Of a stretch of DNA of 64,000 nt, positions 3,793 through 48,919 are shown in pieces. Numbering within the stretch: position 1 is the first letter of the stretch; the number at the start of each line of letters is the position of its first letter. This stretch comes from Escherichia coli (GTDB lineage: Bacteria > Pseudomonadota > Gammaproteobacteria > Enterobacterales > Enterobacteriaceae), in NCBI RefSeq assembly GCF_044324785.1, contig NZ_CP172127.1. One strand, given 5' to 3'. The translations under genes were made by a program, and so were the position numbers. The notes under the pieces are model-generated. The model ran no database searches. It was not told the DNA's origin and worked only from the letters and a program-made list of their open reading frames with translations.

Positions 3793-3819
3793 CTTGAAAC
3801 CCTGAAACTGATCCCCATA
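3793..3819 (+). promoter_or_regulatory. Sigma-32 heat-shock promoter of grpE
   Basis: CTTGAAA, 13 nt spacer, CCCCATAA: close match to the sigma-32 consensus CTTGAAA / CCCCATnT. Confidence 0.8.
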
Positions 3820-3833
3820 ATAAGCGAAGTTAG

Positions 3834-4460
<627 letters not shown>

Positions 4461-6613: not shown

Positions 6614-6779
6614 AGTAATGTCGACAGTTTGAGCAATAAGAAAGAGAAGCAGTATAGCGTTAGGTGAACGCTGCTCCAACCGTTGCATAACAACAAAGAC
6701 GCCTTCATGTTATACTGCGGCAAAATACTGATGATGTGTCGCGATTGCGGCCAACCGTTTCCACCCCAGGCGAGAGACA

Positions 6780-8141
6780 ATGTTTGATAATTTAACCGAT
6801 CGTTTGTCGCGCACGCTGCGCAATATCAGTGGCCGTGGACGCCTCACTGAAGACAACGTAAAAGATACGCTGCGCGAAGTGCGCATGGCGCTGCTGGAGG
6901 CGGACGTCGCTCTGCCGGTAGTGCGTGAGTTTATCAATCGCGTAAAAGAGAAAGCGGTTGGTCATGAAGTTAATAAGAGCCTGACGCCGGGGCAGGAGTT
7001 CGTCAAAATCGTCCGTAACGAACTGGTTGCGGCGATGGGCGAAGAGAACCAGACCCTGAACCTGGCTGCGCAACCGCCTGCGGTCGTGCTGATGGCGGGC
7101 CTGCAAGGTGCCGGTAAAACAACCAGCGTTGGTAAACTCGGTAAGTTCCTGCGCGAGAAGCACAAGAAGAAAGTGCTGGTGGTTTCCGCCGACGTTTATC
7201 GCCCGGCGGCAATCAAACAGCTTGAGACGCTGGCAGAGCAGGTGGGCGTTGATTTCTTCCCTTCTGATGTTGGTCAGAAGCCGGTAGATATCGTTAACGC
7301 GGCGCTGAAAGAAGCCAAACTGAAATTCTACGACGTGCTGCTGGTGGATACCGCTGGTCGTCTGCACGTTGACGAAGCGATGATGGATGAGATCAAACAA
7401 GTCCATGCGTCGATTAATCCGGTTGAAACCCTGTTTGTGGTTGACGCCATGACCGGTCAGGATGCGGCCAATACGGCAAAAGCATTCAATGAAGCGTTAC
7501 CGCTTACCGGTGTAGTGTTGACCAAAGTGGACGGCGATGCCCGCGGTGGTGCGGCGCTCTCTATTCGTCACATCACTGGCAAACCGATCAAGTTCCTCGG
7601 TGTTGGCGAGAAAACTGAGGCGCTGGAGCCGTTCCATCCGGACCGCATCGCGTCGCGTATTCTAGGCATGGGCGACGTACTGTCGCTGATCGAAGATATC
7701 GAAAGCAAAGTTGACCGCGCGCAGGCAGAGAAATTAGCCAGCAAGCTAAAAAAAGGCGACGGCTTCGATCTCAACGACTTCCTTGAGCAACTGCGCCAGA
7801 TGAAAAATATGGGCGGCATGGCCAGCTTGATGGGCAAACTGCCGGGCATGGGGCAGATCCCGGATAACGTCAAGTCACAGATGGACGATAAAGTGCTGGT
7901 GCGTATGGAAGCCATCATCAACTCGATGACGATGAAAGAGCGCGCTAAGCCAGAAATCATCAAAGGTTCGCGTAAGCGTCGTATCGCTGCCGGTTGCGGT
8001 ATGCAGGTGCAGGACGTTAACCGCCTTCTGAAGCAGTTCGACGACATGCAGCGCATGATGAAGAAAATGAAGAAGGGCGGAATGGCGAAGATGATGAGAA
8101 GCATGAAGGGTATGATGCCGCCGGGATTTCCTGGTCGCTAA
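6780..8141 (+). CDS. ffh: Signal recognition particle protein Ffh
   Basis: 453 aa, SRP54-type GTPase motifs GLQGAGKTT and DTAGR, Met-rich C-terminal domain. Confidence 0.95.
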   Translation: MFDNLTDRLSRTLRNISGRGRLTEDNVKDTLREVRMALLEADVALPVVREFINRVKEKAVGHEVNKSLTPGQEFVKIVRNELVAAMGEENQTLNLAAQPPAVVLMAGLQGAGKTTSVGKLGKFLREKHKKKVLVVSADVYRPAAIKQLETLAEQVGVDFFPSDVGQKPVDIVNAALKEAKLKFYDVLLVDTAGRLHVDEAMMDEIKQVHASINPVETLFVVDAMTGQDAANTAKAFNEALPLTGVVLTKVDGDARGGAALSIRHITGKPIKFLGVGEKTEALEPFHPDRIASRILGMGDVLSLIEDIESKVDRAQAEKLASKLKKGDGFDLNDFLEQLRQMKNMGGMASLMGKLPGMGQIPDNVKSQMDDKVLVRMEAIINSMTMKERAKPEIIKGSRKRRIAAGCGMQVQDVNRLLKQFDDMQRMMKKMKKGGMAKMMRSMKGMMPPGFPGR

Positions 8142-13313: not shown

Positions 13314-14384
13314 ATGCAAAAAGACGCGCTGAATAACGTACATATTACCGACGAACAGGTTTTAATGACTCCGGAACAACTGAAGGCCGCTTTTCCATTA
13401 AGCCTGCAACAAGAAGCCCAGATTGCTGACTCGCGTAAAACCATTTCAGATATTATCGCCGGGCGCGATCCTCGTCTTCTGGTAGTATGTGGTCCTTGTT
13501 CCATTCATGATCCGGAAACTGCTCTGGAATATGCTCGTCGATTTAAAGCCCTTGCCGCAGAGGTCAGCGATAGCCTCTATCTGGTAATGCGCGTCTATTT
13601 TGAAAAACCCCGTACCACTGTCGGTTGGAAAGGGTTGATTAACGATCCCCATATGGATGGCTCTTTTGATGTAGAAGCCGGGCTGCAGATCGCGCGTAAA
13701 TTGCTGCTTGAGCTGGTGAATATGGGACTGCCACTGGCGACGGAAGCGTTAGATCCGAATAGCCCGCAATACCTGGGCGATCTGTTTAGCTGGTCAGCAA
13801 TTGGTGCTCGTACAACGGAATCGCAAACTCACCGTGAAATGGCCTCCGGGCTTTCCATGCCGGTTGGTTTTAAAAACGGCACCGACGGCAGTCTGGCAAC
13901 AGCAATTAACGCTATGCGCGCCGCCGCCCAGCCGCACCGTTTTGTTGGCATTAACCAGGCAGGGCAGGTGGCGTTGCTACAAACTCAGGGGAATCCGGAC
14001 GGGCATGTGATCCTGCGCGGTGGTAAAGCGCCGAACTATAGCCCTGCGGATGTTGCGCAATGTGAAAAAGAGATGGAACAGGCGGGACTGCGCCCGTCTC
14101 TGATGGTAGATTGCAGCCACGGTAATTCCAATAAAGATTATCGCCGTCAGCCTGCGGTGGCAGAGTCCGTGGTTGCTCAGATCAAAGATGGTAATCGCTC
14201 CATTATTGGTCTGATGATTGAAAGTAATATCCACGAAGGTAATCAGTCTTCCGAACAGCCGCGTAGCGAAATGAAATACGGCGTGTCTGTAACCGATGCC
14301 TGCATTAGTTGGGAAATGACCGATGCCTTGCTGCGTGAAATTCATCAGGATCTGAACGGGCAGCTGACGGCTCGCGTGGCTTAA
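13314..14384 (+). CDS. aroF: DAHP synthase, tyrosine-sensitive
   Basis: 356 aa [25 protein letters not shown]... Confidence 0.95.
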
Positions 14385-16969: not shown

Positions 16970-17365
<396 letters not shown>

Positions 17366-17534
17366 TCAAAATGTGTGATGGAAATCTCATAATTTTGTCA
17401 CTTTTTGTCAACGAATCTTTTTTGTGAGAAATCGCAGGAAGAGATGTTTTTTTACTTGAGGAATATCTCAAAGCGAGCCATATTTGATGAGATCGATAGT
17501 GACTAAATCGCTTCAGTTTCACAACAAACAGAAT

Positions 17535-17567
17535 AAAAAAACGGCAGCTCAAGGGCTGCCGTTTTGT
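17535..17567 (-). terminator. bamD terminator
   Basis: CGGCAGCTCAAGGGCTGCCG hairpin flanked by A- and T-runs. Confidence 0.7.
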
Positions 17568-17581
17568 GTTTCAGGTTTCTG

Positions 17582-18319
17582 TTATGTATTGCTGCTGTTT
17601 GCGGCGATGATTTTCGCTACTTTTTCAGCTTGCGCATTCATTTGCATCTGACGGTATGCATTTTCCATCAGCGGCAGCGCATCACGCGTAGCCTGGGTAT
17701 CCGGGTAGTCGCGCAACATGCCTTCTACGCGGTTAACGACGGCAACCCATGCGCCACGTTCTGTATAGTACTCGGCCACGGAGTATTCATATTTCGCCAG
17801 ACGATCTTTCAGGAATACCAGACGTTTGGTGGCATCGGTGGTGTACTGACTGTTCGGATAGCCGCGCACCAGTTTGGAAAAGTCACTAAACGCAGCTCGT
17901 GCATGTTGAGGATCGCGATCGCTACGGTCAACGCCAAAGAACCCTTGCAGCGCACTGTCATCCAGCGCCATATTGGTCAGGCCACGCATGTACATGACAT
18001 AATCGATATTCGGATGGGTCGGGTTAAGGCGAATAAAACGATCGATGGCAGCCTGTGCTAACGGCAAATCGGCGTTTTTATAGTAGGCGTAGATGAGATC
18101 CAGCTGCACCTGCTGCGAATACGGACCAAACGGATAGCGATTATCTAACGCTTCCAGTTGCGTTATTGCCTGTCTCCAGTTACCGTCCTGCAGCTTTTGT
18201 TGTGCAGTCGCGTAAATTTCATTTGGCGGATTATCAGGTACTTCTTCCTTTGACCCCGAGCAACCCGCCAAAAACAGGCTTAGTGTGGCGGCTGCCACCA
18301 GATATTTCATGCGCGTCAT
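17582..18319 (-). CDS. bamD: Outer membrane protein assembly factor BamD (YfiO), TPR lipoprotein
   Basis: 245 aa, lipobox LAGCSG. Confidence 0.95.
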
Positions 18320-19434: not shown

Positions 19435-20162
19435 GTAAGCTGATTGTCCCGCAGTGGCCGCTGCCAAAAGGTGTTGCGGCCTGTAGCTCTACCCGTATCG
19501 GCGGCGTGAGCTTGCCGCCTTACGACTCTCTCAACCTTGGCGCTCATTGTGGTGATAACCCGGATCACGTTGAGGAGAATCGCAAGCGACTTTTTGCTGC
19601 GGGCAATTTGCCTTCTAAACCGGTCTGGCTTGAGCAGGTACACGGCAAAGATGTGCTTAAGCTTACTGGTGAACCTTATGCCTCAAAACGAGCAGATGCC
19701 TCTTATAGCAATACGCCCGGCACGGTTTGCGCAGTGATGACTGCCGACTGCCTCCCCGTGCTGTTTTGCAATCGAGCGGGAACGGAAGTCGCCGCCGCTC
19801 ATGCTGGCTGGCGTGGACTGTGCGCTGGCGTGTTGGAGGAGACGGTTTCCTGTTTTGCTGATAATCCGGAAAATATTCTCGCCTGGTTAGGGCCGGCAAT
19901 TGGTCCACGCGCGTTTGAAGTGGGGGCGGAGGTTCGCGAGGCGTTTATGGCAGTAGACGCCAAAGCGAGTACAGCTTTCATTCAGCATGGTGATAAGTAT
20001 CTGGCGGATATTTATCTCCTTGCCCGGCAGCGTCTGGCGAACGTCGGTGTCGAACAAATTTTCGGCGGCAACCGTTGTACATATACGGAAAATGAGACTT
20101 TCTTCTCTTATCGTCGCGACAAGACCACTGGTCGTATGGCAAGTTTCATTTGGCTGATATAA
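19431..20162 (+). CDS. pgeF: Peptidoglycan editing factor PgeF (YfiH)
   Basis: 243 aa; start overlaps rluD stop by 4 bp. Confidence 0.9.
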   Translation: MSKLIVPQWPLPKGVAACSSTRIGGVSLPPYDSLNLGAHCGDNPDHVEENRKRLFAAGNLPSKPVWLEQVHGKDVLKLTGEPYASKRADASYSNTPGTVCAVMTADCLPVLFCNRAGTEVAAAHAGWRGLCAGVLEETVSCFADNPENILAWLGPAIGPRAFEVGAEVREAFMAVDAKASTAFIQHGDKYLADIYLLARQRLANVGVEQIFGGNRCTYTENETFFSYRRDKTTGRMASFIWLI

Positions 20163-20224
20163 CCTAAAGAATCAAGACGATCCGGTACGCGTGATTTTCT
20201 TTTCACATTAATCTGGTCAATAAC

Positions 20225-20253
20225 CTTGAATAATTGAGGGATGACCTCATTTA
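20225..20253 (+). promoter_or_regulatory. Sigma-32 heat-shock promoter of clpB
   Basis: CTTGAAT, 13 nt spacer, CCTCATTTA. Confidence 0.7.
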
Positions 20254-20291
20254 ATCTCCAGTAGCAACTTTGATCCGTTATGGGAGGAGTT

Positions 20292-22865
20292 ATGCGTCTG
20301 GATCGTCTTACTAATAAATTCCAGCTTGCTCTTGCCGATGCCCAATCACTTGCACTCGGGCACGACAACCAATTCATCGAACCACTTCATTTAATGAGCG
20401 CCCTGCTGAATCAGGAAGGGGGTTCGGTTAGTCCTTTATTAACATCCGCTGGCATTAATGCTGGCCAGTTGCGCACAGATATCAATCAGGCATTAAATCG
20501 TTTACCGCAGGTTGAAGGTACTGGTGGTGATGTCCAGCCATCACAGGATCTGGTGCGCGTTCTTAATCTTTGCGACAAGTTGGCGCAAAAACGTGGTGAT
20601 AACTTTATCTCGTCAGAACTGTTCGTTCTGGCGGCACTTGAGTCTCGCGGCACGCTGGCCGACATCCTGAAAGCAGCAGGGGCGACCACCGCCAACATTA
20701 CTCAAGCGATTGAACAAATGCGTGGAGGTGAAAGCGTGAACGATCAAGGTGCTGAAGACCAACGTCAGGCTTTGAAAAAATATACCATCGACCTTACCGA
20801 ACGAGCCGAACAAGGCAAACTCGATCCGGTGATTGGTCGTGATGAAGAAATTCGCCGTACCATTCAGGTGCTGCAACGTCGTACTAAAAATAACCCGGTA
20901 CTGATTGGTGAACCAGGCGTCGGTAAAACTGCCATCGTTGAAGGTCTGGCGCAGCGTATCATCAACGGCGAAGTGCCGGAAGGGTTGAAAGGCCGCCGCG
21001 TACTGGCGCTGGATATGGGCGCGCTGGTGGCTGGGGCGAAATATCGCGGTGAGTTTGAAGAACGTTTAAAAGGCGTACTTAACGATCTTGCTAAACAGGA
21101 AGGCAACGTCATCCTGTTTATCGACGAATTACATACCATGGTCGGCGCGGGTAAAGCCGATGGCGCAATGGACGCCGGAAACATGCTGAAACCGGCGCTG
21201 GCGCGTGGTGAATTGCACTGCGTAGGTGCCACGACGCTTGACGAATATCGCCAGTACATCGAAAAAGATGCTGCGCTGGAGCGTCGTTTCCAGAAAGTGT
21301 TTGTTGCCGAGCCTTCTGTTGAAGACACCATTGCTATTCTGCGTGGCTTAAAAGAACGTTACGAACTGCACCACCATGTGCAAATTACTGACCCGGCAAT
21401 TGTTGCAGCTGCGACGTTGTCTCATCGCTACATTGCTGACCGTCAGCTGCCGGATAAAGCCATCGACCTGATCGATGAAGCAGCATCCAGCATTCGTATG
21501 CAGATTGACTCAAAACCAGAAGAACTCGACCGACTCGATCGTCGTATCATCCAGCTCAAACTGGAACAACAGGCGTTAATGAAAGAGTCTGATGAAGCCA
21601 GTAAAAAACGCCTGGATATGCTCAACGAAGAACTGAGCGACAAAGAACGTCAGTACTCCGAGTTAGAAGAAGAGTGGAAAGCAGAGAAAGCATCGCTTTC
21701 TGGTACACAGACCATTAAAGCGGAACTGGAACAGGCGAAAATCGCTATTGAACAGGCTCGCCGTGTGGGTGACCTGGCGCGGATGTCTGAACTGCAATAC
21801 GGCAAAATCCCGGAACTGGAAAAGCAACTGGAAGCCGCAACGCAGCTCGAAGGCAAAACTATGCGTCTGTTGCGTAATAAAGTGACCGACGCCGAAATTG
21901 CTGAAGTGCTGGCGCGTTGGACGGGGATTCCGGTTTCTCGCATGATGGAAAGCGAGCGCGAAAAACTGCTGCGTATGGAGCAAGAGCTGCACCATCGCGT
22001 TATTGGTCAGAACGAAGCGGTTGATGCGGTATCTAACGCTATTCGTCGTAGCCGTGCGGGGCTGGCGGATCCAAATCGCCCGATTGGTTCATTCCTGTTC
22101 CTCGGCCCAACGGGTGTGGGGAAAACTGAGCTTTGTAAGGCGCTGGCGAACTTTATGTTTGATAGCGACGAGGCGATGGTCCGTATCGATATGTCCGAGT
22201 TTATGGAGAAACACTCGGTGTCTCGTCTGGTTGGTGCGCCTCCGGGATATGTCGGTTATGAAGAAGGTGGCTACCTGACCGAAGCTGTGCGTCGTCGTCC
22301 GTATTCCGTCATCCTGCTGGATGAAGTGGAAAAAGCGCATCCGGATGTCTTCAACATTCTGTTGCAGGTACTGGATGATGGGCGTCTGACTGACGGGCAG
22401 GGGAGAACGGTCGACTTCCGTAATACGGTTGTCATTATGACCTCTAACCTCGGTTCCGATTTGATTCAGGAACGCTTCGGTGAACTGGATTATGCGCACA
22501 TGAAAGAGCTGGTGCTCGGTGTGGTAAGCCATAACTTCCGTCCGGAATTCATTAACCGTATCGATGAAGTGGTGGTCTTCCATCCGCTGGGTGAACAGCA
22601 CATTGCGTCGATTGCGCAGATTCAGTTGAAACGTCTGTATAAACGTCTGGAAGAACGTGGTTATGAAATCCACATTTCTGACGAGGCGCTGAAACTGCTG
22701 AGCGAGAACGGTTACGATCCGGTCTATGGTGCACGTCCTCTGAAACGTGCTATCCAGCAGCAGATCGAAAACCCGCTGGCACAGCAAATACTGTCTGGTG
22801 AATTGGTTCCGGGTAAAGTTATTCGCCTGGAAGTTAATGAAGACCGGATTGTCGCCGTCCAGTAA
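20292..22865 (+). CDS. clpB: Disaggregase chaperone ClpB (857 aa); internal GTG at 20736 is the ClpB-80 start
   Basis: [18 protein letters not shown]...; two AAA+ modules with Walker A GEPGVGKT and GPTGVGKT; the ORF-track start at 20280 is 4 codons too long. Confidence 0.95.
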
Positions 22866-37971: not shown

Positions 37972-38355
37972 ATGATTACAGGTATCCAGATTACTAAAGC
38001 CGCTAACGACGATCTGCTGAACTCTTTCTGGCTGCTGGACAGCGAAAAAGGCGAAGCGCGTTGCATCGTTGCGAAAGCAGGTTTTGCAGAAGACGAAGTG
38101 GTTGCAGTAAGCAAACTGGGTGACATTGAGTACCGTGAAGTTCCAGTAGAAGTGAAACCAGAAGTTCGCGTTGAAGGTGGTCAACACCTGAACGTAAACG
38201 TTCTGCGTCGTGAAACTCTGGAAGATGCAGTTAAGCATCCGGAAAAATATCCGCAGCTGACCATCCGTGTATCCGGTTATGCAGTTCGCTTTAACTCTCT
38301 GACTCCGGAACAGCAGCGCGACGTTATCGCTCGTACCTTTACTGAAAGCCTGTAA
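37972..38355 (+). CDS. grcA: Stress-induced alternate pyruvate formate-lyase subunit GrcA (YfiD), glycyl-radical domain
   Basis: 127 aa [22 protein letters not shown]...RVSGYAVRF; the ORF-track start at 37954 is an over-extension. Confidence 0.95.

Positions 38356-47119: not shown

Positions 47120-48919
<1,800 letters not shown>

Follow-up and report, generated by a model that had tools for sequence, protein, structure and literature searches.

The heat-shock factor sigma-32 (RpoH) accumulates after heat or protein-misfolding stress, and RNA polymerase carrying it recognises both boxes of its promoters, at −35 and −10. Two founding examples of such promoters are those of grpE and clpB, which we take to have been mapped experimentally. 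The grpE heat-shock promoter of Escherichia coli K-12 was reportedly first described by Lipinska et al. in 1988 and is said to feature in the 2006 analysis of the sigma-32 regulon by Nonaka et al.; the K-12 clpB (htpM) heat-shock promoter, with rpoH-dependent heat induction and a mapped start, was reportedly described by Kitagawa et al. and by Squires et al. in 1991. The grpE promoter also serves as a routine stress reporter, PgrpE being in use as a standard readout of RpoH (PMC10442448). The cryo-EM structure of the sigma-32 open complex was obtained with a consensus-adjusted dnaK P1 promoter in which CTTGAA is numbered −35 to −30 (PMC10216364).

Here we analyse a 64-kb stretch of DNA (the window) that contains a sigma-32-like element upstream of both genes. 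The two elements are almost certainly the sigma-32 heat-shock promoters of grpE and clpB on an E. coli chromosome, a reading put forward in the preliminary description and upheld by motif statistics, identity to K-12, conservation across species, published chromatin immunoprecipitation (ChIP-chip) data and an rpoH-dependent PgrpE–lux fusion. Both promoters were already known, and the finding is correct but ordinary; the value of the analysis lies in an annotation confirmed by independent statistics, cross-species conservation and published occupancy. One detail is less ordinary and is the sole lead worth bench work: the clpB promoter is nested within the gene of the small RNA RyfD.

The window follows the E. 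coli chromosomal order ratA-bamE-recN-nadK / grpE ... rluD-yfiH-clpB-rrnG ... rpoE, presented in the reverse of the K-12 orientation. Across about 200 nt each, the grpE and clpB promoter regions are 100% identical to those of K-12 MG1655, so that K-12 findings on both promoters apply directly here, and of 5425 complete E. coli genomes, 5422 match each 47-nt promoter segment at 99% identity or better. The closest genome match is strain N3 (100% identity over the grpE region); an IS4 element interrupts its raiA–bamD interval, at about 17.5 kb of the window, where the window has none, and annotated coordinates shift by 1439 bp as a result.

At grpE, direct reading gives a −35 element CTTGAAA (3793–3799, plus strand, as for the grpE, clpB and ryfD features below), immediately preceded by TTCC to form TTCCCTTGAAA, a spacer of 13 nt (3800–3812) and a −10 element CCCCATAAT (3813–3821), of which the first eight bases, CCCCATAA, occupy 3813–3820. 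The motif CTTGAAA-N13-CCCCATAA was thus present where the preliminary description had placed it, at 3793–3819; the start of that interval is right, and its end falls one base short of the quoted 8-mer, which runs to 3820. Compared with the −10 consensus CCCCATnT, CCCCATAA differs in its final base, A rather than T, and the spacer lies within the consensus range of 13–14 nt. The grpE coding sequence, for the nucleotide exchange factor GrpE, extends from its ATG at 3867 to 4460 (open-reading-frame list and RefSeq annotation of the identical stretch). By analogy with dnaK P1 numbering, transcription is predicted to begin at 3828 (about ±2 nt), equivalent to K-12 position 2750747, which would leave a 5′ untranslated region (UTR) of 39 nt. 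Across Enterobacteriaceae, 22 of the 34 positions of the grpE 5′ UTR between 3833 and 3866 are invariant. We considered this leader as a possible RNA thermometer and dropped the idea because its predicted structure is not significant (z = 0.11).

At clpB, the −35 element CTTGAAT (20225–20231) and the −10 element CCTCATTTA (20245–20253) are likewise separated by 13 nt, and the motif CTTGAAT-N13-CCTCATTTA was found on direct reading exactly at the interval first reported for it, 20225–20253. The earlier statement that both elements match the sigma-32 consensus holds in full for grpE; for clpB it holds for the −35 element and the spacer, whereas the −10 element departs from it, with CCTCATTT reading CCTCAT in place of the canonical CCCCAT of CCCCATnT, that is, T rather than C at the third position. 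The clpB coding sequence, for the ClpB disaggregase, spans 20292–22865 (open-reading-frame list, annotation and a protein alignment of 11 residues), with its ATG 39 nt from the −10 element. The predicted sigma-32 start, again placed by likeness to dnaK P1, is 20260 (about ±2 nt), equivalent to K-12 position 2734205, and would give a 5′ UTR of 32 nt. A further in-frame ATG lies upstream at 20280, within the clpB ribosome-binding site; the annotated start is elsewhere, and the extra codon lengthens mechanical open-reading-frame calls. One metagenome gene call begins MGGIMRLDRL, which may be compared with this in-frame ATG. The internal start of the short isoform ClpB80, annotated in K-12, maps to about 20736 of the window. 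That both genes encode core heat-shock chaperone components, as the preliminary description had it, is borne out: GrpE is the nucleotide-exchange factor of DnaK and ClpB is a disaggregase.

By the mechanism established for promoters of this class, sigma-32 region 4 would contact CTTGAA at −35 and region 2 would contact CCCCAT or CCTCAT at −10. Initiation is predicted some 7 nt past the −10 9-mer, near 3828 (grpE) and near 20260 (clpB). These short-leader mRNAs, with 39 nt preceding grpE and 32 nt preceding clpB, would supply the DnaK nucleotide-exchange factor and the disaggregase, and both would be induced as sigma-32 rises.

How surprising the two motifs are depends on how strictly the pattern is drawn. 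A search of the two strands of the 64 kb for CTTGAA-N14-CCNCAT gave exactly two matches where 0.06 would be expected, and none of 100 shuffled sequences reached two; both matches are intergenic, in sense orientation and 39–47 nt upstream of the grpE and clpB start codons. Widening the gap to 12–16 nt returned the same two matches only (0.22 expected in 64 kb). With two mismatches allowed, no enrichment of the sigma-32 pattern was detected in the 64 kb (13 found, 18.5 expected), and the signal is confined to near-perfect matches.

We also scored the window with an independent two-block weight matrix built from the best sites upstream of nine K-12 sigma-32 genes (dnaK, groS, ibpA, hslV, clpP, lon, htpG, htpX and rlmE), with grpE and clpB excluded. 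Such a scan had been named in the preliminary description as the way to check the motifs, and it settled one of them on score: the grpE site ranks first in the window at 22.1 bits, inside the range of the training promoters (20.2–27.0), with 0.02 scores of this size expected per simulated window. The clpB site, at 14.8 bits, ranks fourth, with 2.8 such matches expected per window; its deficit arises because its −10 element has T at a position where all nine training promoters have C. The matrix score of clpB alone is not significant, and its significance comes from position, orientation and conservation; a plain matrix scan confirms grpE and would have missed singling out clpB, for which context is needed. 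None of the other top-15 matrix matches in the window is both intergenic and upstream of a gene. Those at 13623, 17942, 11198, 16250 and elsewhere were rejected as promoters, being inside genes or antisense to them.

These numbers bear on the simplest alternative, namely that both motifs resemble a short, degenerate consensus by chance and lie beside chaperone genes by coincidence. The lack of enrichment under the relaxed pattern is what such a reading would lead one to expect, as is the clpB score, which a random window reaches about 2.8 times; the two exact matches, each correctly placed and oriented, are not. We give the chance reading practically no weight, and the conservation and occupancy described below leave it effectively refuted.

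To assess conservation at grpE, 80 Enterobacteriaceae loci yielded 66 distinct upstream sequences for alignment, with Escherichia, Citrobacter, Salmonella, Klebsiella, Raoultella, Enterobacter, Kluyvera, Kosakonia, Atlantibacter and others represented. Seven of the eight positions of the −35 segment CCCTTGAA and all nine positions of the −10 segment CCCCATAAT are invariant, compared with 4 of 14 in the spacer, and all 66 sequences have the same 14-nt gap between CTTGAA and CCCCAT. To judge from this alignment, the pattern is a classic two-box promoter footprint. Boxes that persist through dozens of genera, against a drifting spacer at grpE, are not what chance matches would leave behind.

The same bases at grpE can be read in a second way. 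A consensus scan identified a sigma-70-like promoter, TTGAAA-16-CATAAT (3794–3821; 10 of 12 consensus matches), which has the −35 in common with the sigma-32 element and a −10 that overlaps it, and the element might accordingly be mainly a housekeeping sigma-70 promoter with secondary use by sigma-32. Published ChIP-chip regions for sigma-70 (SigD_1109) and sigma-38 (SigS_607) over the grpE locus are in keeping with this (PMC3923258). Against it, the invariant block extends beyond CATAAT to the whole of CCCCATAAT, including four Cs that are irrelevant to sigma-70 and are 100% conserved, which argues that sigma-32 recognition is what is conserved at grpE; the matrix score lies in the range of canonical sigma-32 promoters; and the heat induction of a grpE-promoter lux fusion is lost in the rpoH mutant K165 (PMC10025913). 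A predominantly sigma-70 promoter is therefore improbable. Dual recognition by sigma-70 and sigma-32, as the overlapping motifs would allow, is plausible at grpE and compatible with a sigma-32 heat-shock promoter as the main explanation. No consensus sigma-70 promoter overlapping the sigma-32 site was found when clpB was scanned in the same way.

Occupancy in vivo has been charted by Cho et al. (2014), whose Table S2 lists the sigma-32 ChIP-chip regions SigH_273 (2748133–2749219) and SigH_270 (2731757–2732618) in older K-12 coordinates (PMC3923258). With a 1978-bp offset to NC_000913.3, a value that is inferred and that agrees with the bamD sigma-E and raiA landmarks of the same table, SigH_273 covers the grpE promoter and SigH_270 the clpB promoter, and no other sigma-32 region in this part of the genome is as wide as these two. 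At the resolution of the method (several hundred bp, about 0.9 kb at SigH_270), the best matrix match within SigH_273 is the grpE motif, at 22.1 bits against 8.3 for the next, and the best within SigH_270 is the clpB motif, at 14.8 bits against 7.3. Sigma-32 regions over both motifs in vivo are the further evidence against chance matches. The same table places sigma-70 and sigma-38 regions over both promoters as well (PMC3923258), so sigma-32 is not the sole holoenzyme there. Four narrower sigma-32 regions also map to the window, at about 6628–6977, 17281–17668, 38000–38270 and 47200–47550, corresponding in that order to the ypjD/ffh, raiA, grcA and lepA promoter areas (PMC3923258); within these four the matrix found no sigma-32 motif above 11.5 bits.

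For clpB, upstream regions were gathered through ClpB homologues and one metagenome scan anchored on the first eleven codons only; a single locus was left out because its contig is rearranged, with a break within the clpB −35 element. A sense-strand sigma-32 motif of at least 13 bits lies 61–95 nt before the clpB ATG in 100 of 104 distinct upstream regions, and in the antisense control no motif of at least 13 bits was found in any of the 104. In a set of 60 distinct homologous regions, the CTTG and the AA of the −35 element never vary.

This conservation has to be read with a second gene in mind. In K-12, the small-RNA gene ryfD is annotated at 2734153–2734295 (Rfam RF02768), corresponding to 20170–20312 of the window, and encloses the clpB sigma-32 promoter in its entirety, along with the 5′ UTR and 21 nt from the start of the clpB coding sequence. 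The Rfam model RF02768 matches 20173–20311 at 125.3 bits (gathering score 42) over positions 1–140 of 140. A Term-seq 3′ end lies at K-12 position 2734153, equivalent to 20312 of the window, with read scores far above those of neighbouring sites in the table (PMC7815308 supplement), and in Table S2 of Kim et al. (2012) the start of ryfD is flagged as found by three methods. RyfD has been seen on northern blots in Yersinia, independently of temperature; its pairing with the lpp 5′ UTR has been reported in a 2025 preprint, and according to a 2023 SEC-seq paper neither a protein nor an RNA partner is known for it. RyfD is a genuine RNA, and an abundant one. In the searchable literature, which omits much relevant work, we found no discussion of a clpB sigma-32 promoter inside ryfD.

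A candidate promoter for ryfD itself is the extended −10 motif TGaTATAAC (20155–20163), read directly from the sequence and tentatively assigned to ryfD; it overlaps the yfiH stop codon (TAA, 20160–20162), with the RyfD 5′ end 7 nt downstream. Of 58 distinct homologous sequences, 50 have a TGnTAnnnn motif, in most cases TGATATAAC. In Edwardsiella tarda (L092) and Plesiomonas (L093), yfiH–clpB synteny and a sigma-32-like motif are kept, the intergenic region is longer and the RyfD 5′ arm is absent; RyfD thus appears to be restricted to a subset of Enterobacterales.

The predicted fold of the 143-nt RyfD has a minimum free energy of −52 kcal/mol (z = −5.6) and is closed by an outer helix between a 5′ arm, AAGACGAUCCGG (20174–20185, including AAGACGATCC), and a 3′ arm, CUGGAUCGUCUU (20298–20309), which is the same DNA as clpB codons 3–6. 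The outer helix comprises 11 pairs that are 99.7% paired across 60 distinct sequences, compared with 34–53% for slid-register controls, and in the E. coli minimum-energy fold the closing helix reaches over the AUG. All substitutions in its non-coding arm among the 60 sequences are wobble-preserving transitions, and there is one compensatory change, from A-U to U-A, that coincides with a synonymous substitution in clpB, CTT to CTA. The regular expression that defined the RyfD group admitted only pairing-preserving variants of the 5′ arm and may bias these pair counts; an unbiased best-arm scan found arms matching at 12/12 or 11/12 positions or else no arm, with no intermediates.

Two further elements of the fold involve the clpB expression signals. 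An anti-Shine–Dalgarno segment CUCC (20256–20259), taken from the Rfam consensus structure, pairs with GGAG (20283–20286) of the clpB ribosome-binding site, and the two are 100% paired in 60 sequences, yet almost invariant. The clpB promoter spacer and −10 element, read as RNA, form the predicted hairpin UGAGG-GAUGA-CCUCA (20235–20249), which is invariant in 60 of 60 sequences and hence carries no covariation evidence. The T by which CCTCAT differs from the sigma-32 consensus pairs, in this fold, with the A of UGAGG. The stability of the fold (−52 kcal/mol) makes an RNA thermometer unlikely for RyfD, and no support for one was found in the searchable literature.

It could be, then, that the clpB motif is conserved through selection on the enclosing RyfD RNA and not for promoter function. 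The entire 143-nt RyfD region is conserved, promoter spacer included; spacer and −10 element together make up the invariant UGAGG/CCUCA hairpin; and among the 65 distinct upstream regions with a RyfD arm, the non-consensus CCTCAT is found in 64, which is to say in all of those scoring at least 13 bits. Regions without a RyfD 5′ arm speak against this reading, as 36 of 39 keep a sigma-32 motif equally far from the start codon, frequently with the canonical CCCCAT (CCCCAT in 11, CCTCAT in 10 and several rarer variants), and the ChIP-chip region SigH_270 puts sigma-32 over the clpB site. Selection on RyfD in place of promoter function is accordingly very improbable; it is more likely that promoter and RyfD constraints are superimposed on the motif than that they are alternatives. 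The distribution of −10 variants suggests a double constraint, from promoter and RNA hairpin, on the clpB −10 element.

The overlap also changes what different clpB transcripts would contain. The predicted sigma-32 start at 20260 is directly 3′ of CUCC and far 3′ of the 5′ arm, so a heat-shock mRNA beginning there would be without both sequestering segments. The sigma-32-initiated clpB mRNA has no unusual predicted structure (z = 0.16). Positions −13 to +6 are predicted to be unpaired with a probability of 0.15 in the upstream-initiated and 0.43 in the sigma-32-initiated transcript, a difference that has the same direction in 60 of 60 sequences.

On the basis of these modelled folds, we tentatively propose that the nested arrangement lets promoter choice decide whether ClpB can be made. 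Transcripts from upstream, whether started at the candidate extended −10 promoter or reading through from yfiH, would contain the 5′ arm and CUCC and would fold (−52 kcal/mol) into a structure in which codons 2–6 of clpB are paired, together with its AUG and ribosome-binding site; they would be translationally silent or would end as the abundant 143-nt RyfD. The sigma-32 mRNA from about 20260, starting 3′ of both sequestering segments, would be open for translation. In this way constitutive transcription from upstream would not feed into ClpB synthesis, for which sigma-32 would be the only gate, and the CCTCAT −10 element would represent a trade-off between promoter and RNA hairpin. The structural facts of the ryfD/clpB overlap are well supported, and the functional gating is what we infer from them. 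RyfD might instead be a purely trans-acting small RNA whose gene overlaps clpB with no effect in cis. A search of the accessible literature, which omits much relevant work, returned no statement of a cis gating idea for RyfD and clpB. If true, the proposal would provide a compact example of promoter choice coupled to mRNA structure and a cis role for an abundant small RNA whose function is still being worked out.

Set beside the described systems, the grpE promoter of the window has the same sequence as that of K-12 over 201 nt, with the same gene, orientation and divergent nadK, and the clpB promoter has the same sequence as that of K-12 clpB (htpM) over 200 nt, in the same yfiH–clpB intergenic position; there is no detectable difference in either case. 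With the canonical sigma-32 promoters dnaK P1 and groE, both share the CTTGAA −35 element and a 14-nt gap to a CCCCAT-type −10 element, and grpE additionally shares a C-rich run upstream of the −35. Unlike dnaK P1 and groE, clpB has CCTCAT at −10, and the grpE −10 element ends in AAT, which creates the sigma-70-like CATAAT. The match to RyfD / Ysr155 (RF02768) extends over the full model, at coordinates equal to those of K-12 ryfD, and denotes an overlapping gene rather than an alternative identity for the promoter.
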